This document shows, piece after piece, positions 16,501-34,017 of a stretch of 64,000 bases of DNA (the first letter of the stretch is position 1; every line of letters begins with the position of its first letter). A program made the translations under genes and the position numbers. Origin of the DNA: Promethearchaeota archaeon. GTDB taxonomy: Archaea > Asgardarchaeota > Lokiarchaeia > Sigyniarchaeales > SOKP01. The stretch spans positions 56,064 to 120,063 of the forward strand of contig JBHLOC010000007.1 of the NCBI GenBank assembly GCA_048940925.1. The letters are read 5' to 3'. The notes beneath the pieces were generated by a model that did no database searches, was not told the DNA's origin, and saw only the letters and a program-made list of their open reading frames with translations.

Positions 16501-18392
16501 ATGATTTAAATGCCCAAGATAATGGAGATAATAATAAATGGGACGATGGATTTGCAGGAAATTATTGGGATGATTACACAGGTATAGATGCAAATATTGA
16601 TGCGATAGGTGATAATTCTTACACAATTCGTGGTTTAGCTTATAATAAAGATAATTATCCGTTAATTTATCGAACTGATATTGATACTGACGGAGATGGT
16701 CTAATAAATTACGAAGAATATGTTTTAGGAAAAGATCAATACCGCACTAATGTTACAAATCCCGACACAGATTATGATGAATTATCTGATTATTGGGAAT
16801 GGAAAAATTCTACTAATCCATGGAATCCAGACACTGATTTTGACAGAATGCCTGATGGGTGGGAAGTATTCAATTTTTTAAATCCTATATCCGGAGATGA
16901 TAATATCACTGATGCTGATAATGATTTTCTCTTGAATGTATATGAATTCAAGAATGGCACTGATCCAAATAATGAAGATACTGATGGAGATACATTTTTG
17001 GATGGTATTGAGGCTGGTGCTTTACCAGAATATAACTGGTGGACAGATCCCTTGAATAAGTGGTGGTATCCAATGCCTAATCTAGTGGCTGTAGGTTTTC
17101 AAATAACTTCTGCTGAATTAGGAAAACCATTTGTTTTAAACATAACGATAAAAAACGATGGAATCTGGGATGTAGAAAATATAACAATCATCATTTGGGT
17201 TGAGTATTTGGGACAAGCTTTATATAACAATTCTGAAAATCCTATTCCATTATTAGAAGTGGATGAGGTGTATCAAGATTTTATTCAAAGTGACATACTG
17301 CCAAGTGAGAAAATTCCTCAAGGAGGGCGTTTGGTTATGGAATTAAGATTAGATCCTGAAAATGTAATTAATGAAACTTACAGTAATAAAGATGGATCTG
17401 CTCGACACAGAAGTGAAGATGATAATATCCTAGAAACAATCTTGAATATTGGTGGACAATTACCTGGTGGTGGTTTTGATATCTTTTGGATTATTTTAAT
17501 TGTAATTGGAGTAATAGCTCTAGCGGGAATTACAAGTACTTATATGGTTTTAAGACCAAGAATGAAAAGAAGAGCTGCTTTTAAAAGACAAATTGAAACA
17601 GCGAAAACGGATATTAATAACTTTGAAATCAATATGCGTAGTTTTATTAAAACAAAATTAATAGACACTTACGAATCCAGATGGTGGGATGAAGGAGTCC
17701 CTGAATACATTAGAACCCCCATTGGAACCAAAATAAAAACCTTGAAACCAAAGAAACCAGGAGTGCCAATCGATAGAATGGATTTGTTAGATTTCACACA
17801 TTATAGTGCGATAATCACACAAAGAGATAATTGGGAACATACATTCTCAAAAATCTTTCCCGAAAGAGGCGTGGTTGACACAAATTTCGAAAACCTAAGA
17901 ATTATTAAAAGAGATCTTGCTGAAGGTACAATTACACGTGAACGGTTATCCAGTTATTCATTATTTCTACATAATATAACAAATTTCTTTAGAAAAGGAT
18001 TCAATGTGTTTTTAAGCTACTCCACACTCGATACAGAATACTTTAATGTTAAGGAAATCGCTAAACGTTTAGAATCATTTCCAGAAATTGATAGAGTCTT
18101 TTTCTGGGAAGAAGATAGTGGCGAAAACATCGTCACCTATATGGAAAGGACTTTAGCAATGACAAAGGCATTTGTATTCTTTTGCACGGAACATTCTGTT
18201 AGATCTAAGGCAGTAGAAGATGAGTGGCAAGCAGCTTTTCAGATGAGGAAAAAAGGACTGCTAAAAATAGTACCTGTATATGAAAATGAAAATATAATTC
18301 CCTTCTTATTGATGCCCTTATTAAATGTCAAATACACAAAAGATGATTTTGATGGTTTTATTCAAAAGCTTTATGAGGAAATTCTTAGATAA
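13599..18392 (+). CDS. TIR receptor 1: signal/TM, long beta-helix ectodomain, TSP3-like Ca-binding repeats, CARDB-like domain, TM, Swt1-like HEPN, TIR
   Basis: Asn-rich beta-helix repeats; DTDGDG/DTDxD repeats; TM IFWIILIVIGVIALAGITSTYMVL followed by RPRMKRR; WWDEGVP...LDFTHY...NWEHTFSKIF (HEPN-like); C-terminal VFLSYS...FVFFCTEHSVRSKAVEDEWQAA...IVPVY (TIR). Confidence 0.85.
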   Translation: MKQKRRILTLIILALILFSFSNIQFFLKFFPNYHDNNEDEISELNSAKYWPNLNRIHIDDSNTSLNWATTAANNDWCNGSGTWSDPYIIKNVIIDGQERESCILIKNSNVFFIIENCTVYNTGDEGKFSEEPGIKLINTNNGTFISNNCSLNHYGIRLFNSDNNTFLNNMITKNEFKGITLEDSSNNTFAGNEISNNYLDGIVLESNSDHNNISQNKLYNNFGSGLSLMSGDNNTINNNDIFKNREYGIFLEAGRENTIKENAMKKCGIGISPSEEINTNIIDTSNTVNGKTFYIYFNQTDLDNSDFSSPRLAGQIILIKCNDSIISNFNLSQTSIGLILYECQNNTISNNLVNNCTKSGFYLNFCNNNTIYNNSVNYNFDGIELFGCINTRINRNNATNNKWNGIKLSENCVFNIIHGNNASNNIETGIYTEYCESNNITKNLVLNNERAGIRIKASHFTLIQNNTANNNINTRVINFGVGIQIGETGSFEQSNNNTITENIMNNNSYVGLFLDGKNNTITKNNFTNCGLIFGYYSDITTIDDFSSQTIDRSNLVNNKILYYYFNSTHLSNDNFSNAGQVVLVRCNDSLISNLQLERASLPISSYYCDNITISNNNLTENTFSGIYLIQNSNSNISNNQLNTNINIYLEVSTVITFGFGIYLEDCYNCNFTFNNATNNGYGIYLKDSNNILIKNNTFYDNNIAGISILANQPGKCDDINFSANYMRNCGVYIYESPYLQNSKLYIDKTNLINNRPLHYFSNTNSLKSSDFINPGQIILLNCNNSEISNLSFSRCTIGISLFYCHNASVYNINSSKNSMYGFVLVLSNNCHLFNNTASQNLFGIFNVFCFNNTYTGNTLKNSKSIFIDNLYFGGGICSMWYNDNLNIVRNTFENCSNGIMIYLEGPGIFFNVSDNLLDNNIQYGIWLKNCHNSTFTKNKIQNNGIGIYLDFYSDNSNNSFLYNNLNGNDLNAQDNGDNNKWDDGFAGNYWDDYTGIDANIDAIGDNSYTIRGLAYNKDNYPLIYRTDIDTDGDGLINYEEYVLGKDQYRTNVTNPDTDYDELSDYWEWKNSTNPWNPDTDFDRMPDGWEVFNFLNPISGDDNITDADNDFLLNVYEFKNGTDPNNEDTDGDTFLDGIEAGALPEYNWWTDPLNKWWYPMPNLVAVGFQITSAELGKPFVLNITIKNDGIWDVENITIIIWVEYLGQALYNNSENPIPLLEVDEVYQDFIQSDILPSEKIPQGGRLVMELRLDPENVINETYSNKDGSARHRSEDDNILETILNIGGQLPGGGFDIFWIILIVIGVIALAGITSTYMVLRPRMKRRAAFKRQIETAKTDINNFEINMRSFIKTKLIDTYESRWWDEGVPEYIRTPIGTKIKTLKPKKPGVPIDRMDLLDFTHYSAIITQRDNWEHTFSKIFPERGVVDTNFENLRIIKRDLAEGTITRERLSSYSLFLHNITNFFRKGFNVFLSYSTLDTEYFNVKEIAKRLESFPEIDRVFFWEEDSGENIVTYMERTLAMTKAFVFFCTEHSVRSKAVEDEWQAAFQMRKKGLLKIVPVYENENIIPFLLMPLLNVKYTKDDFDGFIQKLYEEILR
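14452..15980 (+). repeat. Three copies of a beta-helix junction module within TIR receptor 1
   Basis: NTVNGKTFYIYFN...AGQIILIKCNDSIISN / NLVNNKILYYYFN...AGQVVLVRCNDSLISN / NLINNRPLHYFSN...PGQIILLNCNNSEISN, indicating internal triplication. Confidence 0.75.
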
Positions 18393-18441
18393 AATAGACA
18401 TTGATATTTTTAAATGATAATATCTAAAAAAACATAAAGCT

Positions 18442-18454
18442 AAAAGTTTAATTA
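18442..18454 (+). promoter_or_regulatory. Possible archaeal BRE/TATA element
   Basis: AAAAGTTTAATTA about 50 nt upstream of the 18502 start. A similar AAAAGTTTAATAT lies at about 13512-13524, upstream of 13599. Weak evidence in AT-rich DNA. Confidence 0.3.
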
Positions 18455-18501
18455 TTAACTTCTGTTAAAGAATAATAATAGAAAAATAATGTGAATCAAT
18501 T

Positions 18502-20082
18502 ATGGTTGATAGAGTAGTACCATATCTAATTAATATGGATGAAGTAACTCCTGTCCGCTCTCAAGCATCATTATTAAATGAATTAGCAATGGCGTTAATT
18601 GAGTGTATATCAATTAATAGTAAAAAACTAAAAAAATTAGGCAAAATATCTAAAATTTCAACAGCATTTTGGCCAGTTCGTTTAGTCCCGTTGAGTGATA
18701 CGAGAGCATGCGTATTTAGTTATCTATTAAACAAACAAGAGAAGTTAAGTGTTGGTAAATGGGCGCAGATGCCTCCAAAACCAGAAAACATTATTAAGGG
18801 AGCAGATCCAGAATCATTTTTAAGCTCATTACAAAATTATAATAATACTTATTTAAAAAAAAGCAAAAATTTTAAACGTGGAACTGTAATACAAGAAGCT
18901 TTATTTAATGCTAGCGAAGTTGAGTATTTTCAGAATTTTTTCTTAAACCAATATAGTTTAGGTTCTCATTCAACACCTTATTTTCTATTAGAAGGTGGAC
19001 CTATCGCAAAAAGTGTAAATCAAACCAAAATTGTTCCAGAAATTATTGAGTTTGTCTCTCAAAAAGATATTGAAATACTTGATAAAATTGAAGACGGTAT
19101 TATGAAATTATGCGAACGGTGGGTTCAAAAAGGCTCTAAGGAGGTTGATAAAATAAGAGATACTAAAGTTGATACAAGTGAAGAAGAAAAGAATTTATCA
19201 ATTCTAAATAAAGAATTGCAAGCAGAAAAAGAAGAAGAAATAGAAAAAACACCAGAAGAACTAGTCAAAATAGGAAAGTACAAGGTAAATGATAAAACTG
19301 GAGAATTAAATAATGATCTTAGCTCACTTAAAAATAGTGTTGATGGCATGAAAAATGCTATTAATCAAAGAGATCTTTTTTTAGTAGAAGAAGGATTAAA
19401 AGAAATTCAACTAAAGTATCAGGAATTAGGAAATTCAATCAGTCGCTACAATACTGAAATTACACAATTAAGAAAAAATATCCAACGTGAGATTTCTGAC
19501 ACTGAAAGAGCAAAACAACAAAGAGTCCGAGAATTAGAACGAAAAAAAGCTGAAGTGGAAAAACAAATAGAAGCTAAACATTCTGGTTTAAGCAGAGATT
19601 TAACTTCCGCAGAAGATATCATAGCAGCTATAAAAATTGAAAAACAATCTTGTTTAGATAATCTTGAATCTGTAAAAGATATAGAAATGACGAATGTTCA
19701 GAATTTCTTTAATAGCTATTCACTTGCATTAAAGACACAAAATGTTATAGTTGGTATCCCGATTTATATCTTCTATTTCGTAGATCCTAATACAAATAGG
19801 ACTACAGAAAGATCTCCTGTACTTCCTATATTGATTGAAAAAGGGAAAACCGTAAGCACTAAAGTTAATGCAAGTTTCAGGCAGAAATTACGAAATCTAA
19901 TGAATAAGGATAATGCAATGATAGATTTGGTTGAAACTCAAGGCGATAAAAATAATATAATGGAAATAAAAAATCTAGACACTCGACTTGAAGATGCAAT
20001 TAATGATTTGCGAATTCGAAAGATATTGAAAAAAGGTCAAGCTGAAACCGCTAAAGATTTAATTGCTAATCTTATCTGGTAA
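18502..20082 (+). CDS. Hypothetical cytoplasmic protein with long central coiled coil
   Basis: Heptad-rich E/K/Q/L region (about aa 190-400) flanked by globular termini (FWPVRLVP; VGIPIYIFYF); no TM and no Walker motifs. Confidence 0.8.
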   Translation: MVDRVVPYLINMDEVTPVRSQASLLNELAMALIECISINSKKLKKLGKISKISTAFWPVRLVPLSDTRACVFSYLLNKQEKLSVGKWAQMPPKPENIIKGADPESFLSSLQNYNNTYLKKSKNFKRGTVIQEALFNASEVEYFQNFFLNQYSLGSHSTPYFLLEGGPIAKSVNQTKIVPEIIEFVSQKDIEILDKIEDGIMKLCERWVQKGSKEVDKIRDTKVDTSEEEKNLSILNKELQAEKEEEIEKTPEELVKIGKYKVNDKTGELNNDLSSLKNSVDGMKNAINQRDLFLVEEGLKEIQLKYQELGNSISRYNTEITQLRKNIQREISDTERAKQQRVRELERKKAEVEKQIEAKHSGLSRDLTSAEDIIAAIKIEKQSCLDNLESVKDIEMTNVQNFFNSYSLALKTQNVIVGIPIYIFYFVDPNTNRTTERSPVLPILIEKGKTVSTKVNASFRQKLRNLMNKDNAMIDLVETQGDKNNIMEIKNLDTRLEDAINDLRIRKILKKGQAETAKDLIANLIW

Positions 20083-20101
20083 ATCTTTTTTTTATTTTTT
20101 T
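20083..20101 (+). terminator. Possible archaeal oligo-T terminator
   Basis: Two long T-runs directly after the stop of 18502..20082. Confidence 0.4.
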
Positions 20102-20165
20102 AAATTTAAGAATTTTAAGGGTTTCTATTTATTTTAAACTCTTTTTTTAAAATATTACATAAATT

Positions 20166-20349
20166 TACAAAATTCTAAGGATAAGACTAGAATTTCATGG
20201 TTTAAAGATTAGATCACTATATTCCAAAAAAATGGACCAAATTTAAAGTTATACGATACTTTAGGAATATTATTTATGAAATAATTGTTCAAAATCCAGA
20301 TCAATTATCAAAAGGGAATAAAAGAATAAAAATAGATAATATTAACTAG
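20166..20349 (+). pseudogene. Remnant of the C-terminus of a GH94 (cellobiose/chitobiose-type) glycoside phosphorylase
   Basis: Hand translation with one frameshift: YKILRIRLEFHGLKI / DHYIPKKWTKFKVIRYFRNIIYEIIVQNPDQLSKGNKRIKIDN*. This matches the GH94 tail pattern ILGIRPxxxGLxIDPxIPxxWxxFxVxRxFRGxxYxIxVxNPxxxxKGVxxIxVDG. Confidence 0.65.
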
Positions 20350-20518
20350 GATAACATTCTTTTGTTAAAAATTGAATAATAATAGTAGCTACTTAGGAGA
20401 CATGGATGCATGTCCATTGAAAGAAAGTTTTAAATATATTTGTTACAGCATTTAACTTAAAACCTTTATTTAATTATAAAAATAATTTGTTTTAAAATTT
20501 AACAATTGGGAGAAATTC

Positions 20519-23047
20519 ATGAAATTAGGCAAAAATTTACTAATTGCAATAATATTAGGTTCATTGTTAATGATAACTAAACCTATATTCAAAGTTAATG
20601 ATAACTTTTGTGATAATAATTATGTTCCAAACACAATGGAAGAGAAGATTTCTACATCAAATATTCCCCCAATACGCACTACTGAACCTCCTCGTGAAGA
20701 AACGGTCTGGATGACAGGAAGTTATAATTCTCCAACTCAATTTCTTCCATGGAGTGCTCAATTACCCCCAGGTGCAGATGCTGGTATGTATGAAGCTTTA
20801 TTCGGTTATAATAGTGTAACTAAGACACTTGTTCCGTGTATAGGTATTAGTTATTCATGGAGTGTAACTGGTAATAGTATTACTATTGATCTAAATCCTC
20901 TTGCTAAATGGTCTGATGGTTCACCTATTCAGGCTGATGATGTAGTTTATAGTTATGAATTAGCCTCAAATCAAACTAGATACAGAAAGGATTTTACAGC
21001 GAGGTTTATTGATCTTGTTGAAGTAGATACGGATACTGTTCGATTTGATATTAATACAACAGCAGGTTATAACTTTAGTAGGCAAGTTGAAATTTGGATT
21101 ATGTATAATATTCCAATTGTACCTAAACATGTATGGTCTCTAATTGTTGCTGATAAGGGTACTAATGATTTTATAGGAATTGGTTATCAATATGATTGGT
21201 TTGATTCAATAGATGTTCCTAACGAATGGAAAGTGATATCTGGACCTTATGCTCCTGTTTATCGAAATGCATCAAAAACTACTTGTGCATATCAGTATAG
21301 AGAGGATTGGTGGGGTGCTGGAATCCTTTACCAAGATCTTCCTAATGCAGCTGAAGATCCACCAAAATATATAGGAACAATTAGATTAACTTCTAATATT
21401 GAACAAAACCTCGCCTTGTTGCAAGGAGATGTTGATTTACATGCGAGTTATTATTATCATATTTGGGAAATCTGGGAAGATGCTACTCCGTCAGATCCTG
21501 GGTATTATATCAGTTGTTGGTATGATCATGATCCCCCTTATCAATTAGCTATTGGCCCTCTTATAACTCTTGCACCCAATCATCTTCTTGCAGATTCTCC
21601 ATTAGGAGTAAAAAATTTCAGAGAAGCCTTAGCTTATGCTATTAATTATACATCTATCCCTGCTGCAGCCGCTTCTGGATATTGGTCAAAATCTAAACCT
21701 GGATATATTGATAATAATAGCGCATTACATGCCCCATATTATAATGGGTCTATTACAGCAAAATATCAAAAATTTTTGAATGTCACTAATGCTATTGTAT
21801 TATTACAGAGCATTCCTGGTATGACAGGATCTGTAGCATCTGGATGGACATATAACGGACATGCTGTTGGACCTTACGAAGCAATTGTTCCTATTGGTTG
21901 GAGTGATGTTATTGCATATACAGAAATGGTTTGTAATGATATTACTGACAACTTAGGAATTACTATTACAGCCACACAAGTTGATTTTGAAACTATTTTT
22001 CAATCTTCGATAGAAAATAATAATTTTGATTTTGCTATATTTCGTGTCGGAAACCGAATATCAGATCCTCCTCAAAGATTTCTTGATTATATGAGAGGAA
22101 CACACTTATGGAACAAAAATGCAACCAATTGGAATAATCCTACATTTGAAGCTCTATGGCAGACGCTTGAAACTGCAAATGAAACAACTTATGCAAAGAA
22201 TCTGAACCTAATGCAAGAAATTTTAGCTGAAGAAGTTCCAGAAATTCCTGGGTTTGTTGATGGATATTGGTATGCTTTTAGTGAATATTTTTGGGAAGGT
22301 TGGGCAAGCGAAGCAAATAAATTTCAACAACTTGTTACAACTTGGACAGATAATCAGTTTGTAATTAAAACAAGATTAATGTTGAACTTAAAATCAATAG
22401 ACCGCAAAAGTCCGATGATTACTATTAATTCACCAAGTGAAAATCAAGTATACGGTGAATTTGCACCAAATTTTAACGTGGAAGTATATGATGCTAATCT
22501 TGATACGATGTGGTACACCATAGATGGAGGATTTACTAACATTACATTTATTACCAATGGAACAATCGATCAAAATAATTGGAGTGCTCAAGTTGACGGT
22601 CCTATGGAGATAATTTTTTATGCAAATGATACATTAGGTCATATAAACTCCAATCAAGTCATAATCAATAAAGATACTACAGTCCCTGAAATAATTATCA
22701 ATTCTCCATCTCCCGATCAAGTATTCAGAGGTAATCCTCCTGAATTCAGTTTATCTATAAATGAAAGTAATTTAGAATCAATTTGGTATACATTAGATAA
22801 TGGATTAGTGAATATTACATGTGAGATATCAGGACAAATTGATCAAAATTATTGGAATGCGCTAAAACCGGGAAGTTATACCCTTAGATTTTATGCTAAT
22901 GATACAATGGGTTATAAAGGATTTTCGGAAGTATCTATTAAGAAAAAAGCAAGGGTAATTTCTGTGTATAATCCAATAATTATATCTATAATTACTGTAT
23001 TGGTAACTATAACTATTAGGTATAAAATAAAGAAAAAATTGAAATAA
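20519..23047 (+). CDS. Family-5 ABC solute-binding protein (oligosaccharide/peptide-binding type) with two Ig-like stalk repeats and C-terminal membrane anchor
   Basis: MYEALFGYN, AKWSDGSPIQADDVVYSY, SGPY, FREALAYAIN and MQEILAEEVPEIP; WYTIDGG...FYANDTLG repeats; C-terminal ISVYNP + TM + basic tail. Confidence 0.85.
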   Translation: MKLGKNLLIAIILGSLLMITKPIFKVNDNFCDNNYVPNTMEEKISTSNIPPIRTTEPPREETVWMTGSYNSPTQFLPWSAQLPPGADAGMYEALFGYNSVTKTLVPCIGISYSWSVTGNSITIDLNPLAKWSDGSPIQADDVVYSYELASNQTRYRKDFTARFIDLVEVDTDTVRFDINTTAGYNFSRQVEIWIMYNIPIVPKHVWSLIVADKGTNDFIGIGYQYDWFDSIDVPNEWKVISGPYAPVYRNASKTTCAYQYREDWWGAGILYQDLPNAAEDPPKYIGTIRLTSNIEQNLALLQGDVDLHASYYYHIWEIWEDATPSDPGYYISCWYDHDPPYQLAIGPLITLAPNHLLADSPLGVKNFREALAYAINYTSIPAAAASGYWSKSKPGYIDNNSALHAPYYNGSITAKYQKFLNVTNAIVLLQSIPGMTGSVASGWTYNGHAVGPYEAIVPIGWSDVIAYTEMVCNDITDNLGITITATQVDFETIFQSSIENNNFDFAIFRVGNRISDPPQRFLDYMRGTHLWNKNATNWNNPTFEALWQTLETANETTYAKNLNLMQEILAEEVPEIPGFVDGYWYAFSEYFWEGWASEANKFQQLVTTWTDNQFVIKTRLMLNLKSIDRKSPMITINSPSENQVYGEFAPNFNVEVYDANLDTMWYTIDGGFTNITFITNGTIDQNNWSAQVDGPMEIIFYANDTLGHINSNQVIINKDTTVPEIIINSPSPDQVFRGNPPEFSLSINESNLESIWYTLDNGLVNITCEISGQIDQNYWNALKPGSYTLRFYANDTMGYKGFSEVSIKKKARVISVYNPIIISIITVLVTITIRYKIKKKLK

Positions 23048-24798: not shown

Positions 24799-24824
24799 AC
24801 TTTATTCATTTTTAATACTTTTAA

Positions 24825-27812
24825 ATGGTAATATTATTGCTTAAGAATAAAAAAAAGAATTTAACACTCTTATTTAGTTTTTTTATCCTATTCATTATCA
24901 TCAATCTTAACAGCCGTTATAATAATTTCAATATACCTGTTAATAAAAATTTTGAAACCGATAAAAGAACTAATTTGAAAGAGCTTAAGACATCAACGAT
25001 CTATTATGAAATTACAATTAACGATCTTCTAACATCTAATACTACAAATATGGGTAATTGGACCTGGGCAAGAACTCAACCTTGGTGTACTCAAGGATCA
25101 GGAACTTCAGAAGACCCTTATGTAATTGAAAACAGCACATTTACAAATTCTTCATTATATGGTGCAGGTCTTAGTATTTATAATTCAAGAAGATATTTTA
25201 TTATCAGAAATTGTACATTTAAAGATGCGCCTTTTGGTATTCATCTTTGGTATGCCACAAATGGGACAATTATTAAAAATAAAATGCATAACAACTGGGA
25301 AGGTATATGGGCAATTAGAAGTGATCAGAATATTATATCAGAAAATAATGTAACCAACAATGGTATTGGCATTCGAATGTGGATGGGATGTGATAATATC
25401 AATATCACTAAAAATATCGTATCAGAAAGCAGTTATCTTGGAATTTATGTGGATTATGGCCACAATTGTCTTATTTCAGAAAATATAGTAAATGACAATA
25501 AAGCTAATATGGGGATTGGTTTATATAATTATAGTTCTAATAATTTGGTTGTAGATAACACTTTAGAGCGAAATGTAGATGGAATTAATATAGGCTGGGC
25601 TTATAATACTACGATTGCTAACAATATTTTGAATGAAAATAATCATACTGGACTTTATATGAAATTGAGTAAAAATATCACAATTTTAGGTAACATTTTA
25701 GAGGATAATAATGTTAGTGGAATTATTTTGGAAAGTGGTAACAATAACACAATTACAGGAAATGTAATAGAACGTAATAACATCAGTGGAATTGAGACTA
25801 TGGGTGGGTTTAATTTTAACCATATCTATGAGAACTACTTTATCATGAATGGAAAACATGCAATTGAGAAAGGATCGAATAATGACTGGAATAGCACTAC
25901 AATTGGTAATTATTGGGATAATTATACAGGTTTAGATCCAGATCAGGATGGAATTGGTAATATCCCTTATAATATTAGTTTATCGCCTTTAATCCAAGAC
26001 CATTTACCAATTGTAGACAATGAACCGCCATTTATAAGAATTGATTCCCCAAAGCCTGGTGATAAATTTAGTTTTAATGCCCCAAGGTTTAGTGTTTCTA
26101 TAATTGGTGAAGATCCTTATTCTATGTGGTATACTTTGGATGGAGGGTTAAACAACTACACATTCACGGAAAATGGTAAAATAGATCAAACAGCTTGGGA
26201 TGCTCTACCCTCAAGTACAATTACTCTTAAATTTTATGCGCGTGATAAACCATGTAATATTGGGACTTCAGAGGTTTCTATAATAAAGGACATCGAAGTT
26301 CCAAACATAATAATTAATTCACCGAGTTCTAATGAAATTTATGGTAATAAAGCACCAAATTTCAAAATTTCCATTGATGATCCAAATTTGGATTCTATCT
26401 GGTATACTTTAGACAACAATCTAATGATTCTAACTTATGAAAAGAATGGTACAATTAGTCAAAATATATGGAATGGATTTGGAAATGGAACTGTTACTAT
26501 CAAATTTTATGCAAATGATACTCTCGGAAATTTAGGTACAGCAGATATTAATATAAGAAAAGACATAATTTCACCCATAATAACAATTAAAAACATTGAG
26601 GAAAATCAACGATTTGGTAAGAAGCCTCCATCTTTTAATGTCTCTATAAATGAACCAAATTTAAACCTAACATGGTATTCAATATATAATGGTACTCAAT
26701 GGTCTCAAGAGATCATTTTTACAGAACTAATAGGCAATATCGATAAAGTATTATGGAAATCATTACCTAAAGGAAATGTAACAATTAGGTTTTACGCTAG
26801 CGACTTAGCAGGGAATATTGGGTTTGAAGAGATCTTATTCATTAAAAGCTATAAAGAAATCCTCTCTCCAACTGGAGTAGTTATTTTAATCACTGTCATT
26901 GCTATTAGTTCTACAGTGGTAATAAGTGGCACGATTGTATGGAAAAAGAAAAAATTCTCAAGGAAATTAAAAGAAGGAGGAAAAATAGAAGATAAAAAGA
27001 TACCTAAAATTAAAAACATAGTCCAAAAAAGAATGATATTAATTGATAACTTAATCCAAGAACAAAAATTAAAGGAGGCGATTAAACATTTAAATCAGAT
27101 TAGAGAGATAGCCCAAATTTATGGATTAAAATACTTATTGGCGAATATCCAAGAAAAGTTAGACGAGTGTAAAAAAATAGAATTAGATACAATTAATTCA
27201 ATTAAAAAAGCAATAAACGATCTAGGAAGGAAAAATCTTCGCTTTCAAATTGTAGAAATTAGTAAAAAAAGTGGTGTTAAAGATGAGAAGATAATAGAAG
27301 ACATAATTCATGAGATGATTAAAAATAAAGAAATTTCTGCTAAATATTATCCAAAGTCTGACACAATCGTATTAAGTCTAATGTTATTTCCTGTATTAAA
27401 GCTTAAAGAAATGAAGGAAATCAACTTGTTTTTAAGTTATTCAACCCTAGATTCAGAATACTTTCAGATACCCAAAATTGTTAGATATTTAGAAGAATAT
27501 CCTGAAATTGGTAGGGTCATGTTTTGGGAAGCTGATAGTAAAGCAAATATAGTAGAATATATGGAAAAGACTTTGAGAATTACAAATGTGTTTGTATTGT
27601 TTTGTTCTGAAAATTCAATGAAGTCTGCTTCTGTAGAAGGAGAATGGCACGCAGCCTATCAAATGAACAAGGAAGGACTTCTAAAAGTTATATCTGTTTA
27701 TGAAGATAAAGACCATATTCCAAGGTTATTATGGCCTTTATCAAATGTTAAATACTTAAAGGAAGATTTTCATGAATTTATTCAAACTCTTTTTAGAGTA
27801 ATTATGGAATAA
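24825..27812 (+). CDS. TIR receptor 3: beta-helix ectodomain, three Ig-like repeats, TM, PCI-like winged helix, TIR
   Basis: WCTQGSGTSEDPYVIEN cap, beta-helix, GNYWDNY..DGIG; three WY...FYAxD repeats; TM GVVILITVIAISSTVVISGTIVW + KKKK; TIR LFLSYS...SASVEGEWHAA. Confidence 0.88.
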   Translation: MVILLLKNKKKNLTLLFSFFILFIIINLNSRYNNFNIPVNKNFETDKRTNLKELKTSTIYYEITINDLLTSNTTNMGNWTWARTQPWCTQGSGTSEDPYVIENSTFTNSSLYGAGLSIYNSRRYFIIRNCTFKDAPFGIHLWYATNGTIIKNKMHNNWEGIWAIRSDQNIISENNVTNNGIGIRMWMGCDNINITKNIVSESSYLGIYVDYGHNCLISENIVNDNKANMGIGLYNYSSNNLVVDNTLERNVDGINIGWAYNTTIANNILNENNHTGLYMKLSKNITILGNILEDNNVSGIILESGNNNTITGNVIERNNISGIETMGGFNFNHIYENYFIMNGKHAIEKGSNNDWNSTTIGNYWDNYTGLDPDQDGIGNIPYNISLSPLIQDHLPIVDNEPPFIRIDSPKPGDKFSFNAPRFSVSIIGEDPYSMWYTLDGGLNNYTFTENGKIDQTAWDALPSSTITLKFYARDKPCNIGTSEVSIIKDIEVPNIIINSPSSNEIYGNKAPNFKISIDDPNLDSIWYTLDNNLMILTYEKNGTISQNIWNGFGNGTVTIKFYANDTLGNLGTADINIRKDIISPIITIKNIEENQRFGKKPPSFNVSINEPNLNLTWYSIYNGTQWSQEIIFTELIGNIDKVLWKSLPKGNVTIRFYASDLAGNIGFEEILFIKSYKEILSPTGVVILITVIAISSTVVISGTIVWKKKKFSRKLKEGGKIEDKKIPKIKNIVQKRMILIDNLIQEQKLKEAIKHLNQIREIAQIYGLKYLLANIQEKLDECKKIELDTINSIKKAINDLGRKNLRFQIVEISKKSGVKDEKIIEDIIHEMIKNKEISAKYYPKSDTIVLSLMLFPVLKLKEMKEINLFLSYSTLDSEYFQIPKIVRYLEEYPEIGRVMFWEADSKANIVEYMEKTLRITNVFVLFCSENSMKSASVEGEWHAAYQMNKEGLLKVISVYEDKDHIPRLLWPLSNVKYLKEDFHEFIQTLFRVIME

Positions 27813-27975
27813 ATCCATTTAATTATAAACATAAATATATTAATTTCAGTATCTTAATCTAGATTTAGATAGTATTGATCAATGTGAAATCTCAAGAAAG
27901 TTAAATGTCTGTTTTTATTCTTATTAATTCAATTTCATACGAAATTATATGGCATTATGAAGGTAGAATAACAAT

Positions 27976-30936
27976 ATGATAAAAAGAAATAGATATTGTC
28001 TTGTTTTACTTTTTCTAATAGTTATATTTAATATTATTCCATTGATTAGATTCAATTTCAATGAACCTAATAAAAAAATTATTATTACTGATGAGGATTT
28101 TCATGCTAAAATCAATTCTGTAAAAACATCAAATCCAATAGTTTTATCGGACGGATTTGCGGGTATAGAATGGAATGATGATATTAGTCAAACTCCTTCA
28201 ATCGTCATAGATACTAATGGCACTATTCATGCAGTCTGGTCAGACTTTACTAATGGTCCGTGGGGTAATGATCCTGAGATAATGTATGCAAATTATTCCT
28301 CTTCACTTGGATTATCTTATGCTACAGTCATTTCTGATGGATATAATGGTGATTATTGGAATTCGGGTGGTAGCTATTTTCCAGATATTGCTATCGATAA
28401 TTATGGAAATATTCATGTTGTTTGGTATGATGATACTGATGGTCAATGGGGCACTGATGAAGAAATAATGTATGTGAATTACACATCTTCCGCTGGTTGG
28501 TCAAATGCCACTGTAATTTCGGATTTATATGGTGGAAGTGTATGGAATAATCGTTATAGCAGGGATCCTTCAATTGCTATAGATAATATTGGAGGAATTC
28601 ATGTTGTTTGGAATGATGATACTGATGGCGAATGGGGAACTGATACAGAAATAATGTATGTAAATTATACATCTTCCACTGGCTGGTCAAATGCTTGTGT
28701 CATTTCGGATTTATATGGCCAAATTAAATGGAATAATGATTTTAGTGAGAATCCTTCAGTTGCTGCTGATAATATTGGAGGAGTTCATGTAGTTTGGCGA
28801 GATCTCACTGATGGTCTATGGGGCACTGATCCTGAAATAATGTATGTAAATTATACCTCTGATTCTGGTTGGTCAAACATTACTGTAATTTCGGATGGAT
28901 TTGGGGATAAATATTGGAATAATGAGTGGAGTGACTATCCTTCAATTACAACAGATAATTTTGGAGGAATTCATGTTGCTTGGCAGGATGATACTGATGG
29001 TGAATGGGGAACTGATACCGAAATAATGTATTGTAATTATACATCCTCAAATGGATGGTCTAATGCTTCGGTTATCTCAGATTTATATGGAGGAATTGAA
29101 TGGAATGATGGTTATAGTGGTACTCCTTCAATTGCTACTGACAATATTGGAATAGTCCATGTAGCTTGGGTTGATGGAACTGCTGGTCCATGGGGAAGTG
29201 ATGGGGAGATAATGTATTGTAATTATACATCTTCAAATGGATGGTCTAATGCTACAGTAGTTTCTGACGGATTTGATGGGACATATTGGGATACAGGTGC
29301 GAGTGGTAATCCTTCAATTGCTATAGATAATGCTAGAACTATTCATATAGTATGGCAAGATGATTTTGCATTATGGTGGGGTCCTGATTCTGATATAGTA
29401 TATATTTTCATTGATAATATCGTTCCAGTTATTTCAATAAAAAATCCTACTCCAAACCAATTTTTCGGAATAGCTCCTCCAAATTTTAGTATAGAAATTA
29501 GTGAAGATCGTTTGGATAGAATTTGGTATATTTTGAATGATGATATAAAGACTTTTATATCTAAAAGCAATGGTACAATAAATCAAAATGTATGGGATAG
29601 AATTTATAATGGAACTATAACTATCATTTTTTATGCAAATGATACTGTAGGAAATTTAGGTTCTGCAAATGTTAAAATAAGAAAAGATTTAATTTCTCCT
29701 ATAATAATAATTAACAATATTGAAACGAATCAACGGTTTGGTAAAGAATCTCCATCTTATAGCTTATCTATAAATGAACCAAACTTAAACATATCATGGT
29801 ATTCAATATATAATGGTACTCATTGGTCTCAAGAGTTTATTTTTACTGAACTAGAAGGAAAAATTAATCAGTTATTATGGGATTCATTACCTAAAGGAAA
29901 TGTAACGGTTAGGTTTTATGCTAATGATTTAGCGGGGAATATTGGATTTGAAGAGATCTCAATTATTAAAAGCTATAAACAAAATAAATTTCCTATTGAA
30001 TTAATTGCTTTAATTTCAGTTATTGCTATTGGGTCCACAATAGTATTAAGTGGTGTAATAGTACGAAAGAAGAAGATTTTTACTAAGATATCAAAAAAAG
30101 AAGGAAAGATTGAAGCTAAAGAGTTAATCAAAGATAAAAATTATCTCCAAAAAAGAAGGTTGTTAATAGATGATTTAATAAAAAGAAATGAATTTAAAGA
30201 GGCGATTAAAAATTTAAACCAGATTAAGGAAATAGCCCAACGTTATGGATTAAAATATCTATTGACGAATACCGAAGAAAAAATAGATGAATGTAAAAAA
30301 TTAGAATTGGAAACTATTAAATCCATTAAAGAGATAATAAAAAATTTAGGTAGGAAATATATTCGCGTACAAGTTGTAGAGATTAGCAAAAAAAGTGGCA
30401 TTAAAGATGAAAAAATGATAGAAGATATAATTCATGAAATGATTCAGAAGAAAGAAATTCTTGCCAAATATTATTCTAGTTCTAAAACAATCACATTTGG
30501 CCTAATGGTAATCCCTGTATTGAAGCCAAAGTTAAAAAGGAAAAATGATGTATTTTTAAGTTATTCAACCTTAGATTCAGAATACTTTCAGATACCCAAA
30601 ATTGTAAAAAGTTTAGAAGAATATCCTGAAATCGGCAGGGTTATGTTTTGGGAAGCGGATAGTCAAGCAAATATCGTAGAATATATGGAAAAAACTTTGA
30701 GAATTACGAATGTTTTTGTATTGTTATGTTCTGAAAATTCTTTCAAGTCTGAATCGGTAAAAGGTGAATGGCAAGCAGCTTATCAGATGGATAAAGAAGG
30801 CCTTTTGAGAATTATCCCTGTTTATGAAGTTCAAGACCACATTCCCCGGTTATTATGGCCTTTACCAAGTGTCAAATATATAAAAGATGATTTTGATATA
30901 TTTATTCAAAATCTTTATAAAACAATTTTAGAATAA
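27976..30936 (+). CDS. TIR receptor 4: 7-repeat beta-propeller ectodomain, two Ig-like repeats, TM, PCI-like winged helix, TIR
   Basis: Seven 62-aa repeats; TM LIALISVIAIGSTIVLSGVIV + RKKK; TIR VFLSYS...SESVKGEWQAA. Confidence 0.88.
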   Translation: MIKRNRYCLVLLFLIVIFNIIPLIRFNFNEPNKKIIITDEDFHAKINSVKTSNPIVLSDGFAGIEWNDDISQTPSIVIDTNGTIHAVWSDFTNGPWGNDPEIMYANYSSSLGLSYATVISDGYNGDYWNSGGSYFPDIAIDNYGNIHVVWYDDTDGQWGTDEEIMYVNYTSSAGWSNATVISDLYGGSVWNNRYSRDPSIAIDNIGGIHVVWNDDTDGEWGTDTEIMYVNYTSSTGWSNACVISDLYGQIKWNNDFSENPSVAADNIGGVHVVWRDLTDGLWGTDPEIMYVNYTSDSGWSNITVISDGFGDKYWNNEWSDYPSITTDNFGGIHVAWQDDTDGEWGTDTEIMYCNYTSSNGWSNASVISDLYGGIEWNDGYSGTPSIATDNIGIVHVAWVDGTAGPWGSDGEIMYCNYTSSNGWSNATVVSDGFDGTYWDTGASGNPSIAIDNARTIHIVWQDDFALWWGPDSDIVYIFIDNIVPVISIKNPTPNQFFGIAPPNFSIEISEDRLDRIWYILNDDIKTFISKSNGTINQNVWDRIYNGTITIIFYANDTVGNLGSANVKIRKDLISPIIIINNIETNQRFGKESPSYSLSINEPNLNISWYSIYNGTHWSQEFIFTELEGKINQLLWDSLPKGNVTVRFYANDLAGNIGFEEISIIKSYKQNKFPIELIALISVIAIGSTIVLSGVIVRKKKIFTKISKKEGKIEAKELIKDKNYLQKRRLLIDDLIKRNEFKEAIKNLNQIKEIAQRYGLKYLLTNTEEKIDECKKLELETIKSIKEIIKNLGRKYIRVQVVEISKKSGIKDEKMIEDIIHEMIQKKEILAKYYSSSKTITFGLMVIPVLKPKLKRKNDVFLSYSTLDSEYFQIPKIVKSLEEYPEIGRVMFWEADSQANIVEYMEKTLRITNVFVLLCSENSFKSESVKGEWQAAYQMDKEGLLRIIPVYEVQDHIPRLLWPLPSVKYIKDDFDIFIQNLYKTILE
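28141..29415 (+). repeat. Seven tandem 186-bp coding repeats (propeller blades)
   Basis: Consensus VISDxxGxxxWNxxxSxxPSIAxDNxGxIHVVWxDxTDGxWGxDxEIMYxNYTSSxGWSNAT, also visible at DNA level (gatactgatgg..aatgggg; gaaataatgtat). Confidence 0.9.
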
Positions 30937-31077
30937 ATCCAATTTTTTATAACAAAAGTATATAAGATTCAATATCTTAATGTTGATTTAAAAAAATTAG
31001 TATAAATGAAATCTCAAACAAATTATAGACTATTTTAATTTGTAAACTTTCGAATTTAATTCAAATTTAGTGTTTCT

Positions 31078-34017
31078 ATGAAATTAAGTATTAAAATAGA
31101 GAAAATGAAAAGAATCACCCTTATTTTATTATCTATGATTGTCATATTTAGCATTGTTTCATTAATCAAATTTGACACAAAAGAACCTATACACATAAAA
31201 AATGGAAATGATGATGATTTTAATATTGAATTAAGCTCTGTAAAATATACAAATGGAACAATTATTTCTGATGGGTTCAATGATGTGTATTGGAATGATC
31301 AACTAAGTAGTTCTCCTTTAATTGCTATTGATATCTATGGAAACCTCCATGTTGTGTGGCATGATGATACTGATGGTCCATGGGGTGTTGATTCTGAAAT
31401 AATGTATGCAAAATATTCAATATCAGCGGGTTGGTCTAATGTTACTGTAATTTCGGATTTGTATGGCTGGAATGATGGTGATAGTGTAAAGCCTTCAATT
31501 GCTACGGATTCAAATGGTAATGTTCATGTAGCATGGGAAGATGATACTGATGGTCCATGGGGTATTGACTCTGAAATAATGTATGCTAATTATTCTTCAT
31601 CTGTTGGGTGGTCTAACCCTGTTGTAATTTCAGATTTATATGGCGGAGTTGAATGGAATGATGGGAATAGTGGGAATTCTTCGATTGCAATAGATAATGA
31701 TGGAGATATTTATGTAGTCTGGGATGATAACACAGATACAATATGGGGTCCCGACTCAGAAATAATGTTAGCAAAATTTTCACCTTCAATTGGTTGGTCT
31801 AACGCTAGTGTGATCTCAGATAATTTTGGGGGTCAATCTTGGAATGATGGCTGGAGTAGAGATCCTTCAATTGCTATCGACAACGATAAAAACATTCATG
31901 TTGTATGGCAAGATGATACTGACCATGGTTCGTGGGGTACTGATACTGAAATTATGTATAGAAAATATGTTTATTCATGGTCTATGTGGACTAATGATAC
32001 TGTAATATCGGATACTTGGTGGGTTCAAAGTTGGAATGATGGTTATAGTGGAAATCCTTCAATTGCAATAGGTGAGTTTGGATTCCCACATATTGTATGG
32101 ATTGATGATACTGATGGCGAATGGGGCACTGATATTGAAATAATGTATATAGCGCAACCCTATGATAATGCTACTGTAATCTCGGATGGATTTGAAAGTG
32201 TATATTGGAATGATGATTTCAGTGGTTATCCTTCAATTACTACCGATATTGATGGAAACGTTCATGTAGTATGGTTCGATAATACTGATGGCTCGTGGGG
32301 GATTGATTCTGAAATTATGTATGTAAAATATTCTTCCTTAAGTGGGTGGTCTAATGCCACTGTAATTTCGGATGGATTTGGAGGCATATATTGGAATGAT
32401 GATAATAGTAAGAATCCTTCTATTATAACAGATCAGAATGGAAATATCCATGTAGTGTGGGAAGATGATACAAATGGAAAATGGGGTATGGATACCGAGA
32501 TAATGTATATCTTTACCGATTATCCCGCTCCAGTTATTACTATAAATAATCCAAGGTCAAATGAGATTTTTAGATCTCTAGCACCAAGCTTTAATATTAC
32601 TATTAAAGAGTCAAATTTAGACACGTTTTGGTATACCCTTGATGGAGGTATAACAAATATTACGATCACAGAATTCATAGGAACGATTAATCAAATAGAG
32701 TGGGACAAGATTGGAAGATCTACTGTGGAATTAACTTTTTATGCGATTGATGTTGTGGGAAATATTGGTTTTCAATCAGTTATTATTGAAAAAGCTATTG
32801 ATTATTGGCAAGTAAATCCAATTATTATTGATGACAAGGGAACTGGAGATTTCACTTGGTCTGAAGTAGCAATGCAGGGATGGTGTACCGGTTCTGGAAC
32901 TTCAACAGATCCTTATATTATTGAGTTTTTAAAAATTGATGGGCAGAATGGCTATAATTGTATTGAAATTAGGCATTCTAAAGTTTTTTTCGTAATTGGA
33001 AAATGTCTTTTGTTTAATTCTGGAACAGGATCAAGATTTGCAGGATTTAATTTATTCAATGTTTCTAATGGAATTTTGACTGATAATAATTGTTCTTATA
33101 ACAATGGATACGGCACAATTATAATGAATTGCTCATATATCACTATAACAGAAAATGAAGTGAATAATAATGAAATTGGTGGGATATATTTAGAATCTAG
33201 CCGTTTTATCAACATTTCAAATAATAAAGATACTATAAGTTACAATGGATTATATGGAATCTATTTAATATTTAGTAATGATAATACGATTACAGACAAC
33301 ACTATAAACTACAATCAGAATGGTATTTACTTGTATAGATCTAATGATAATACTATAATAGGAAATAAACTTATTGGGAATAAAGTACCAATTACAGAAA
33401 TTGAATGTAGTGGAAATATTATTAAAGGCAATAGCATTGGTATAAAGAAATTTCCCATTGAATTTTTAATAATAATTGGTACTCTAATAGGTATTACAAT
33501 AATATCTAGTGCTATTATTTTATTGAGGAAAAAGATCTTTAAGAAATTATTTCCTAAAAAGGGTGGAATAATCAAAGAGAAAGGCAAAAGAATTTCTGTA
33601 ACTAAAATTGGAGAAAAGCATAAGCTTAATGTGTTTCTAAGCTATTCTACTATAGATTCTGGATATTTTCAGATACCAAAAGTAGTACAACATTTAGAAA
33701 AGTATCCTGAAATTGACAAAGTTTCAAGCTGGGAAGCTGATAGTAAGGAAAATATAGTAGAATTTATGGGAAAAACTTTAAAGGACACTGATGTATTTGT
33801 GTTATTTTGTTCTGAAAATTCTGTTAATTCTGAATCTGTTAAAGGTGAATGGCAAGCAGCTTATCAATTGAATAAAGCTGGTCTTTTAAAAATAATTCCT
33901 GTATACGAAATTCAAGAACATATTCCTCGATTGTTATGGCATATATTAAATGTAAAGTATTCAAAAAAAGATTTCAATGGATTTATTGAAAATCTTTATC
34001 ATGAAATATTAAGATAA
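31078..34017 (+). CDS. TIR receptor 5: 7-repeat beta-propeller, Ig-like domain, beta-helix, TM, TIR (no winged helix)
   Basis: Seven repeats of the same family as receptor 4; WCTGSGTSTDPYIIE cap then beta-helix; TM FLIIIGTLIGITIISSAIILL + RKK; TIR VFLSYS...SESVKGEWQAA. The real start may be the ATG at 31105. Confidence 0.88.
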   Translation: MKLSIKIEKMKRITLILLSMIVIFSIVSLIKFDTKEPIHIKNGNDDDFNIELSSVKYTNGTIISDGFNDVYWNDQLSSSPLIAIDIYGNLHVVWHDDTDGPWGVDSEIMYAKYSISAGWSNVTVISDLYGWNDGDSVKPSIATDSNGNVHVAWEDDTDGPWGIDSEIMYANYSSSVGWSNPVVISDLYGGVEWNDGNSGNSSIAIDNDGDIYVVWDDNTDTIWGPDSEIMLAKFSPSIGWSNASVISDNFGGQSWNDGWSRDPSIAIDNDKNIHVVWQDDTDHGSWGTDTEIMYRKYVYSWSMWTNDTVISDTWWVQSWNDGYSGNPSIAIGEFGFPHIVWIDDTDGEWGTDIEIMYIAQPYDNATVISDGFESVYWNDDFSGYPSITTDIDGNVHVVWFDNTDGSWGIDSEIMYVKYSSLSGWSNATVISDGFGGIYWNDDNSKNPSIITDQNGNIHVVWEDDTNGKWGMDTEIMYIFTDYPAPVITINNPRSNEIFRSLAPSFNITIKESNLDTFWYTLDGGITNITITEFIGTINQIEWDKIGRSTVELTFYAIDVVGNIGFQSVIIEKAIDYWQVNPIIIDDKGTGDFTWSEVAMQGWCTGSGTSTDPYIIEFLKIDGQNGYNCIEIRHSKVFFVIGKCLLFNSGTGSRFAGFNLFNVSNGILTDNNCSYNNGYGTIIMNCSYITITENEVNNNEIGGIYLESSRFINISNNKDTISYNGLYGIYLIFSNDNTITDNTINYNQNGIYLYRSNDNTIIGNKLIGNKVPITEIECSGNIIKGNSIGIKKFPIEFLIIIGTLIGITIISSAIILLRKKIFKKLFPKKGGIIKEKGKRISVTKIGEKHKLNVFLSYSTIDSGYFQIPKVVQHLEKYPEIDKVSSWEADSKENIVEFMGKTLKDTDVFVLFCSENSVNSESVKGEWQAAYQLNKAGLLKIIPVYEIQEHIPRLLWHILNVKYSKKDFNGFIENLYHEILR
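31261..32520 (+). repeat. Seven tandem ~180-bp coding repeats (propeller blades)
   Basis: Same consensus as 28141-29415, with small indels in units 2, 4 and 5. Confidence 0.9.

Follow-up and report, generated by a model that had tools for sequence, protein, structure and literature searches.

Five TIR proteins at one locus of a Loki-type archaeon

We analyzed a 64,000-nucleotide stretch of DNA from a Promethearchaeota archaeon (the window; positions 56,064 to 120,063 of contig JBHLOC010000007.1, assembly GCA_048940925.1). It encodes five proteins with C-terminal TIR domains (R1 to R5) and, downstream of them, a protein with RelA/SpoT homolog (RSH), TPR, and SLOG domains (the RSH-TPR-SLOG gene; Table 1). 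The window is AT-rich (GC content 0.25–0.34) and comes from contig C34 of an assembly that totals 4.8 Mb in 90 contigs. The metagenome-assembled genomes (MAGs) that contain relatives of its genes are labelled Promethearchaeota or Promethearchaeia, which are Loki-type Asgard archaea.

The five open reading frames (13599–34017, + strand) are intact. Each protein matches TIR_2 from Pfam (PF13676) above the cut-off of 28 bits (51.4, 56.0, 39.1, 48.3, and 48.0 bits for R1 to R5), and PF01582 was not matched in any of them. R2 alone passes the cut-off of the Pfam family ThsB_TIR (21.2 bits). An earlier reading of this DNA, which was made from the sequence alone, had reported five TIR domains that all keep a glutamate (Glu) at the catalytic position. 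The motifs that it listed (SKAVEDEWQAA, SKAVKDEWQAA, SASVEGEWHAA, SESVKGEWQAA, and SESVKGEWQAA) are letter-exact, and its range, 18000–34014, runs from the start of the first TIR domain to the last sense codon of R5. Below, we give positions relative to this Glu as E-4 or E+1.

R1 and R3–R5 each combine a hydrophobic anchor at the N-terminus with a single internal transmembrane (TM) helix. According to Pfam, the N-terminal parts of the receptors contain NosD/beta-helix, immunoglobulin-like (Ig-like), or repeat domains. N-glycosylation sequons are frequent before the TM helix (1.8–4.1 per 100 residues) and nearly absent after it (0–0.4), and 6–8 lysines or arginines directly follow the helix. 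In R1, for instance, there are 52 sequons outside and 1 inside, with 7 lysines or arginines after the TM helix. These two biases place the TIR domains on the cytoplasmic side of the membrane. We describe R1 and R3–R5 as type-I glycoprotein-like receptors, and R2 as a polytopic membrane protein.

The regions between membrane and TIR domain vary. In R1, this juxtamembrane module (17619–17900, residues ~1337–1433) matches the PADLOC candidate family PDC-M34B (E = 1.4e-08) and, weakly, HEPN_Swt1 from Pfam (E = 0.0077). In its place, R3 and R4 show only a weak similarity to PCI domains (E ~ 0.1). The ectodomains diverge far more than the TIR domains do: between receptors, the TIR domains are 58–80% identical and the ectodomains are 16–43% identical. 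Even among the tandem paralogs R3–R5, the corresponding ranges are 67–80% and 23–43%. Just 26 nucleotides separate the stop codon of R2 from the start codon of R3 (24798–24825).

Table 1. Genes and domains of the TIR receptor locus, in window positions.
Feature	Position	Strand	Length	Description
R1	13599..18392	+	1597 aa	Signal anchor, ~1260-aa beta-helix (NosD/PbH1) ectodomain, TM 1288–1318, HEPN-like juxtamembrane module, C-terminal TIR; Pfam: NosD 4e-65, Beta_helix 1e-62, TIR_2 1.9e-13
R1 TIR	17985..18389	+	135 aa	Extent by family profile; Glu1542 codon 18222–18224; E-4 is Ala
R2	23278..24798	+	506 aa	Four N-terminal TM helices (windows 6–35, 53–71, 76–98, 107–129), coiled-coil/PCI-like cytoplasmic module, C-terminal TIR, no ectodomain; Pfam: TIR_2 7.3e-15, ThsB_TIR 24.1 bits
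R2 TIR	24391..24795	+		Glu451 codon 24628–24630; E-4 is Ala; domain chosen for AlphaFold2 (AF2) model m6403b9d14b4d
R3	24825..27812	+	995 aa	Beta-helix + Ig-like ectodomain, TM 681–706, PCI-like module, TIR
R3 TIR	27405..27809	+		Glu940 codon 27642–27644; E-4 is Ser
R4	27976..30936	+	986 aa	Repeat (propeller-like) + Ig-like ectodomain, TM 672–697, PCI-like module, TIR
R4 TIR	30529..30933	+		Glu931 codon 30766–30768; E-4 is Ser
R5	31078..34017	+	979 aa	Repeat (propeller-like) + Ig-like + beta-helix ectodomain, TM 792–817, short linker, TIR
R5 TIR	33610..34014	+		Glu924 codon 33847–33849; E-4 is Ser
RSH-TPR-SLOG gene	34485..37073	+		RelA/SpoT-like nucleotidyltransferase, TPR, SLOG (LSDAT type), C-terminal tail; Pfam: RelA_SpoT 5e-09, TPR, LSDAT_prok 2.8e-05
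SLOG domain of RSH-TPR-SLOG gene	35952..36644	+		AF2 model m030bd98fef4c, pLDDT 84.6
Coiled-coil protein	18502..20082	+	526 aa	Conserved; between R1 and R2
Surface protein	20519..23047	+		SBP_bac_5 + Ig-like (Pfam), C-terminal anchor, no TIR

The glutamate aligns with the catalytic residue of NADase TIRs

When the TIR domain of R2 was compared to the Protein Data Bank (PDB) as a single sequence, phmmer gave only a marginal match (9m0n, E = 0.011), and family profiles were required. With profiles, the best PDB matches by sequence were 9m0n and then Cat1 (E = 3.9e-06). Numbering residues within the 135-residue TIR domain, a profile of 34 family members aligns S74-x-A76-V77-x-x-E80 to S68-D-W70-C-W-D-E74 of Cat1, without gaps in this region. 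With a broader profile, built from 20 TIRs, the mapping to Cat1 is unchanged. This profile also aligns E80 with the Glu of SSWCLDEL in a plant TIR (3jrn) and the Glu of SEWVKKE in a TIR-TPR protein (9m0n); at this position, Hydra TRR-2 has a threonine.

The NADase site of Cat1 is lined by S7, H8, N9, N10, D33, S68, and E74, and the alanine mutants that were tested, including S68A and E74A, were non-toxic (PMC12162218). In our alignment, S11-Y12-S13-T14, in the loop between beta-A and alpha-A, correspond to S7-H8-N9-N10 of Cat1. The acidic BB-loop residue of Cat1, D33, lands in an insertion, with E42 and D44 of the TIR family nearby.

The AF2 model of the R2 TIR (pLDDT of 93.3, where pLDDT is the predicted local distance difference test) has five strands that alternate with helices, and the Glu lies in the first half of the helix at 75–89, which is alpha-C. 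This model matches known TIR structures with a Foldseek probability of 1.0 and VIA Z scores of 13.4–15.4. The scores are 15.4 for SPARTA TIR-APAZ, 15.3 for RPS4, 14.9 for Cat1 (root-mean-square deviation of 1.6 Å over 115 residues), 14.7 for RUN1, and ~14.5 for SARM1 and MyD88. MyD88, MAL, and Hydra TRR-2 are also among the top structural matches. By the profile cut-off and the flavodoxin-like beta/alpha fold of the model, the window's domains are members of the TIR superfamily.

As judged from the gap-free alignment to Cat1 E74, the alignments to 3jrn and 9m0n, and the position in alpha-C of the model, the invariant Glu corresponds in position to the catalytic one of NADase TIRs. The sequence-only reading had made the same assignment for the E that precedes the tryptophan. 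Among the features of the catalytic subclass, the Glu at the alpha-C position is present, and the aromatic residue at E-4 is absent.

The glutamate is retained across a family of Promethearchaeota proteins

We searched 1.84 billion cluster representatives with a profile of the family and found 1036 proteins with E ≤ 1e-3 and 143 proteins with E ≤ 1e-30. We aligned 159 TIR domains, taken from representatives of 50%-identity clusters; 155 of them have Glu80, 158 have Ser74, 158 have Asp16, and 149 have Trp81. All 36 of the family's TIR domains in the loci that we fetched have the Glu. In a deliberately diverse set of TIRs, the only invariant residues are F9, S11, D16, and E80.

The five TIR domains in the window are paralogous (R2–R5 are 56–62% identical to R1), and more than 70% of TIR domains overall have a Glu at the catalytic position (PMC7075850), so its presence in five of five is no more than shared descent would give. 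Its retention across the family is more informative than its presence in these five paralogs.

In nearly all of the best 150 proteins, the TIR is C-terminal (134 of 154 domains end at most 15 residues from the C-terminus). A long N-terminal part is present in 125 proteins, and in 76 of these the TIR is preceded by an internal TM helix.

The TIR family is confined almost entirely to Promethearchaeota. Within this phylum, it was found in 32 of 201 sampled genomes, including 26 of 40 in the window's family; among the 10 other members of the window's genus, only 4 have it. Genomes with the family have 1–13 matches. In the collection of papers that we searched, we found no published description of a receptor-TIR family in Asgard or Lokiarchaeal genomes; Leao et al. 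merely list TIR-containing defense systems as enriched in Asgard archaea.

The sequence-only reading had divided the five receptors into two subtypes, R1/R2 and R3–R5. In a phylogenetic tree of the TIR domains, R3–R5 do form a clade (support of 90/86), with R3 and R4 as sisters (100/99), which is consistent with local tandem duplication. In contrast, R1 and R2 do not form a clade. They carry the consensus motif of the family, and each falls in a separate clade of orthologs that is shared with other MAGs, so the supposed first subtype is the family consensus rather than a clade. At the most closely related locus (L004), only an R2-like gene lies between the coiled-coil gene and the RSH-TPR-SLOG gene, so the R3–R5 array is either a lineage-specific expansion or was lost at L004.

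One locus carries a label from outside the phylum. L023 (JBHLQA010000152.1), labelled Candidatus Odinarchaeota, has an R1-like gene and a coiled-coil gene that are 57–78% identical to those in the window, and its TIR is sister to that of a Promethearchaeota locus (support of 98/96). The contig may thus have been wrongly binned or labelled, or the genes were recently transferred.

The family lacks the aromatic residue of the catalytic motif

The canonical motif of catalytic TIRs is WxxxE, and E+1 is usually leucine. The window's TIRs have alanine (R1 and R2) or serine (R3–R5) at E-4. Across the 159 domains of the family, E-4 is alanine in 91, serine in 49, proline in 10, and aromatic in none, with a near-invariant tryptophan at E+1 instead (149/159).

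In characterized TIRs, the tryptophan at E-4 (W204 of AbTir, W638 of SARM1, or W131 of L6) stacks on the ligand, and E-4 is aromatic in every cyclase TIR that was examined (Manik et al., bioRxiv 10.1101/2022.05.07.491051). The same study found that AbTir W204A makes far less 2' cyclic ADP-ribose (2'cADPR), that L6 W131A and ROQ1 W82A are inactive, and that the loss of this tryptophan also lowers the activity of SARM1. By this rule for cyclases, the absence of the aromatic residue makes a cyclic second messenger a less likely output. The sequence-only reading compared the family to an enzymatic motif "S-x-W/x", which is correct for the position of the Glu, but it left the missing tryptophan unweighed, and the second messenger that it allowed for is disfavored in its usual, cyclic form.

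A putative nucleotide-sensing gene lies beside the receptors

The RSH-TPR-SLOG protein may be the reader or effector of a TIR product, as its domain content and location suggest. The best PDB matches of the model of its SLOG domain are MHR1-2 of TRPM7, TRPM2, and TRPM4 (E ~ 3e-08), including TRPM2 with bound ADP-ribose (ADPR). ThsA was not among the top 50 structure matches. In eight related loci, the RSH-TPR-SLOG gene lies 0.4–2.6 kb downstream of a TIR gene of the family.

Of the 201 sampled genomes, 10 had a match to the RSH-SLOG protein and 9 had a match to the SLOG profile. In all eight genomes from the window's family with an RSH/SLOG match, a TIR of the family is encoded within 10 kb. 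The arrangement is not fixed: the orientation is convergent in G147, and the neighborhood is rearranged in L009. Another genome of the same genus, G171, has a 37%-identical RSH-TPR-SLOG paralog in a different TIR island. Because this paralog sits in a separate island, a functional link between the TIR and SLOG proteins is favored over mere inherited synteny.

The G171 island (contig C38; L028:1-20000 and L029) encodes two RSH/TPR/SLOG paralogs, a DUF4062-TPR protein, a TIR-only protein of 189 amino acids, three proteins with an N-terminal TIR followed by leucine-rich repeats (LRR), and LRR-only proteins. Unlike the window's TIRs, the N-terminal TIR-LRR proteins have phenylalanine or tyrosine at E-4. 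Also, residues 12–107 of the window's RSH-TPR-SLOG protein (34518–34805) match the PADLOC candidate defense family PDC-S33 (E = 1.9e-07).

A possible receptor-enzyme pathway and its alternatives

Tentatively, and with a little less than even confidence, we propose from these comparisons that the receptor TIRs cleave NAD+ to a non-cyclic product related to ADPR. When the ectodomains or the juxtamembrane modules (PCI-like or HEPN-like) cluster, the TIR domains would be arranged head to tail and thereby form a composite active site like those of SARM1, AbTir, and Cat1. In the assembled site, the Glu would cleave the bond between nicotinamide and ribose. The products would be linear ADPR and nicotinamide, or else a non-cyclic conjugate of ADPR. 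These are likelier than 2'cADPR or 3'cADPR because the E-4 aromatic of every known cyclase TIR is replaced by alanine or serine. At the window's locus, the TRPM2-like SLOG domain would then read the product and turn on the RelA/SpoT-like nucleotide pyrophosphokinase domain of the same protein. In genomes with receptors but without the SLOG gene, the output might be the consumption of NAD+ itself, or there might be another reader. The entire chain, an outside-in pathway of Loki-type Asgard archaea that leads from glycosylated receptors with a Toll-like layout, via a TIR enzyme and a linear ADPR-type product, to a TRPM2-like SLOG and an alarmone-type (RelA/SpoT) synthetase, is a more speculative idea, and we consider it quite unlikely to be correct in every part.

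Several observations weigh against enzymatic TIRs or against their link to the SLOG protein. First, over 90% of the TIRs of the Toll-like receptors (TLRs) TLR1/2/6/10 have a Glu here, as compared to under 10% of those of endosomal TLRs, TIRAP, and MyD88 (PMC7075850). In TLR2, IL-1R9, and IL-1R10, which keep the Glu, its side chain points away from the pocket and no activity was detected, and just 25 of 154 Glu-bearing eukaryotic TIRs yielded a cyclic ADPR isomer in E. coli (2026 animal-TIR preprint). The Glu is thus necessary but not diagnostic: it does not separate enzymes from scaffolds. Second, since loss of the E-4 tryptophan abolished the activity of L6 and ROQ1 and lowered that of SARM1 and AbTir, this family could be weak or inactive. 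Third, no PADLOC model of a defense TIR matches R1–R5. Fourth, of the 31 other sampled genomes that contain the TIR family, 24 gave no match to the SLOG gene. Conversely, contig C40 of G123 (L031), from another family of the phylum, encodes a 35%-identical RSH-TPR-SLOG homolog in a genome without a TIR_2 match. This homolog has one in-frame TAA within the SLOG match, and G123 is a counter-example to an obligate partnership with TIRs. Finally, the housekeeping genes that flank the locus are syntenic too, so much of the adjacency of TIR and SLOG genes could be inherited synteny.

Given the 24 of 31 genomes and the G123 homolog, we rejected the RSH-TPR-SLOG protein as a general partner of the TIR family and retained it as a locus-specific partner. 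We searched the loci without RSH genes for another conserved effector and found only housekeeping neighbors (HAD hydrolase, NTP transferase, amidases, and aldehyde dehydrogenase). Housekeeping genes are likewise the only neighbors at a second chromosomal site of the TIR family.

The sequence-only reading had inferred enzymatic output from the Glu. The equivalence to the catalytic residue stands, but the Glu of the inactive TLR2, IL-1R9, and IL-1R10 undercuts the step from residue to activity. That reading had also contrasted these TIRs with the scaffold TIRs of animal TLRs. The TIRs of human and mouse TLR4 and of two invertebrate TLRs are now reported to synthesize cyclic ADPR (cADPR) in a Glu-dependent manner (2026 animal-TIR preprint). 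Because TLR4 is reported to be catalytic, the contrast between enzymes and animal scaffolds is no longer clean, which weakens this part of the argument.

The strongest alternative is that these TIRs are scaffolds or adaptors that assemble by homotypic TIR-TIR contacts, for instance to recruit a soluble LRR-PCI-TIR protein that is encoded elsewhere in the genome. The Glu and Ser74 would then be kept for packing or as part of an interface. We consider this to be rather unlikely. Across TIRs in general, no other surface residue is as highly conserved as the Glu, which is also common in the non-enzymatic TLR1/2/6/10 (PMC7075850). The retention of the Glu in TLR2, IL-1R9, and IL-1R10 without activity, the absence of the WxxxE tryptophan from 159 of 159 domains together with the inactivity of the corresponding mutants of L6 and ROQ1, the possible adaptor without a TM helix, the structural matches to MyD88, MAL, and Hydra TRR-2, and the absence of the SLOG reader from most genomes with the family would all fit with scaffolding. 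On the other hand, TIRs that act purely as scaffolds (MyD88, TIRAP, and the endosomal TLRs) usually lack the Glu (<10% have it), and Hydra TRR-2 has a threonine; in this family, by contrast, the Glu, Ser74, and the beta-A loop residues that match the pocket lining of Cat1 are all near-invariant. That the TIR genes are closely and repeatedly linked to a gene with a nucleotide-binding SLOG domain also argues against scaffolding.

Alternatively, the TIRs could be self-contained effectors whose output is the exhaustion of NAD+, leading to growth arrest or dormancy, as in SARM1, SPARTA, and Cat1, with the SLOG gene a mere syntenic neighbor. This would share the active-site evidence (the alignments to Cat1, 3jrn, and 9m0n) with the proposal of an ADPR-type messenger. 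The closest solved relatives by sequence and structure, Cat1 and SPARTA TIR-APAZ, deplete NAD+, and the lack of the cyclization aromatic fits with plain hydrolysis. So do the absence of the SLOG gene from 24 of 31 genomes and the second site with only housekeeping neighbors fit with depletion. However, the RSH/SLOG gene stays with TIR genes despite rearrangement (L009), inversion (G147), and paralogy (the G171 island). We would also argue that up to 13 copies of a suicide enzyme in one genome, under the control of surface receptors, would be hazardous. All in all, depletion as the sole output seems improbable.

That the TIRs are cyclases, forming 2'cADPR, 3'cADPR, or canonical cADPR that is bound by SLOG as by ThsA, is very improbable: the SLOG of Thoeris does bind 3'cADPR from a neighboring TIR, operon linkage of TIR and SLOG has been used to predict producers of 3'cADPR (2026 animal-TIR preprint), and R2 exceeds the ThsB_TIR cut-off (24.1 vs. 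21.2 bits), but E-4 is alanine or serine in R1–R5 and aromatic in 0 of 159 domains, as opposed to all examined cyclase TIRs, the SLOG is of the TRPM/LSDAT type (the characterized ligand of TRPM2 is linear ADPR) with ThsA outside its top 50 matches, no ThsB model from PADLOC matches, and it is the TIR-LRR proteins beside the RSH-SLOG paralog in G171 that carry the aromatic residue.

If the proposed pathway from NAD+ cleavage to SLOG were confirmed, then the closest prokaryotic relatives of eukaryotes would have a transmembrane TIR enzyme pathway that joins TIR receptors to an ADPR-sensing SLOG of the TRPM type, two modules that animals also use. The chain from ADPR via a TRPM-type SLOG to RelA/SpoT would, possibly, be a new kind of messenger relay. 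If at least the TIRs are active, Asgard archaea would have TIR enzymes that are coupled to surface receptors, which would support the view of the 2026 animal-TIR preprint that catalysis is the ancestral function of TIRs and scaffolding a later specialization. They would also be a tractable prokaryotic model for how the clustering of ectodomains switches on a TIR active site. As the tryptophan of WxxxE is absent, the family is a natural test of what this aromatic residue contributes. If instead the TIRs are inactive, they would be prokaryotic scaffolds that retain the Glu, and a warning against inferring activity from the Glu alone.

Comparison to known TIR systems

Like the prokaryotic NAD+-depleting effectors Cat1 (CRISPR-associated TIR 1; PDB 9mud and 9mue) and SPARTA TIR-APAZ, the window's proteins have the common TIR fold, and the Ser, Glu, and beta-A loop positions of Cat1's NADase pocket align with theirs. 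However, Cat1 is switched on by cyclic tetra-adenylate (cA4) via its CARF domain and SPARTA by guide and target nucleic acids, whereas the window's TIRs hang on membrane receptors. Also, Cat1 has a tryptophan at E-4 (SDWCWDE), where the window's family has alanine or serine along with the near-invariant tryptophan at E+1, and they are just ~19% identical.

In Thoeris (the TIR protein ThsB with the SIR2-SLOG protein ThsA, as well as types with multiple TIRs), TIR genes lie beside a gene with a SLOG nucleotide-sensor domain, as in the window. But the TIRs of Thoeris are small soluble sensors instead of the tails of large membrane receptors, and its effectors have SIR2, TM, or Macro domains, while the putative effector here is RelA/SpoT-like with a TRPM/LSDAT-like SLOG. 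The window's TIRs lack the aromatic residue for cyclization, and they are flanked by housekeeping genes, not by a defense island. No Thoeris model from PADLOC matches R1–R5 (E ≤ 0.01). Nor did we find a match to the membrane TIR system Rst_2TM_1TM_TIR of PADLOC and DefenseFinder; the sole PADLOC match in R1–R5 is that of R1 to PDC-M34B. NCBIfam gave no informative TIR assignment for the window's TIRs.

The layout of ectodomain, single TM helix, and cytoplasmic C-terminal TIR is common to the window's receptors and to the Toll-like, interleukin-1 (IL-1), and Hydra Toll-related receptors of animals. Hydra TRR-2, TLR2, TLR6, and MyD88 are among the sequence and structure matches of the window's TIRs. 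As further likenesses to animal receptors, the ectodomains diverge quickly while the TIRs are conserved, and the Glu is retained, which is also true of TLR4 and TLR1/2/6/10. In contrast to the LRR ectodomains of animal TLRs, those of the window's family are beta-helix, propeller-like repeat, Ig-like, or solute-binding, and the only LRR-TIR protein of the family in this genome has no TM helix. We did not see a death-domain adaptor resembling MyD88. A specific kinship to animal TIRs is not supported, since enzymatic TIRs from bacteria and plants reach equal or higher scores.

SARM1 and the plant TIR NADases (RPS4, RUN1, and L6) match the fold (Z of 13.4–15.3), and the alignment to 3jrn places the window's Glu at the WxxxE position. 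In SARM1 and L6, the tryptophan at E-4 (W638 and W131) contacts the ligand and is needed for full activity, whereas the window's family has alanine or serine. The SAM and ARM domains that accompany the TIR of SARM1 and the NB-ARC domain of the plant proteins are absent from the window's receptors.

Neighboring genes and other TIR proteins of the genome

The coiled-coil protein at 18502–20082 is 66–79% identical next to TIR genes in eight loci. It has no match in Pfam, PADLOC, or NCBIfam, and its look-alike clusters in the Atlas are from Promethearchaeota, Bathyarchaeota, and Thermoproteota. Given the look-alikes across archaeal phyla and the lack of a domain match, we set it aside as a component of the system; it is probably a syntenic neighbor. 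The flanks of the locus are metabolic or housekeeping genes that are themselves syntenic, and with such metabolic flanks a defense island or a mobile element is not supported as the setting. At 4.6 kb upstream of R1, there is a gene for NAD kinase (7868–8974, – strand), with conserved synteny in L010 and L021. Its proximity to putative NAD+-cleaving domains is probably coincidental.

Two more members of the TIR family, on contigs C55 and C59 of the same genome, fuse a solute-binding ectodomain to a TM helix and a TIR. The protein at L002:5120-8797 (– strand) has the order SBP_bac_5-TM-TIR, and the one at L001:1085-4519 (– strand) has an ectodomain of Peripla_BP_6 and beta-helix. The window's gene at 20519–23047 has SBP_bac_5 and Ig-like domains without a TIR, and comparing it to the L002 fusion suggests that ectodomains are swapped modularly.

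Contig C10 encodes a 477-amino-acid protein with LRR, PCI-like, and TIR domains (L003:6526-7959, – strand). Its TIR is from the same family, and it has no TM helix. This soluble protein, which pairs LRR with TIR as TLRs do, could act as a sensor in the cytoplasm or as an adaptor of the membrane receptors. A gene for a PAS histidine kinase adjoins it.

A ninth TIR, on contig C77 (L030:3913-5502, + strand), is divergent and has a more canonical motif (SEDCSNEL). It belongs to a soluble protein of 530 amino acids with a C-terminal coiled coil, whose orthologs (~530–560 amino acids) recur in many genomes of the window's family.

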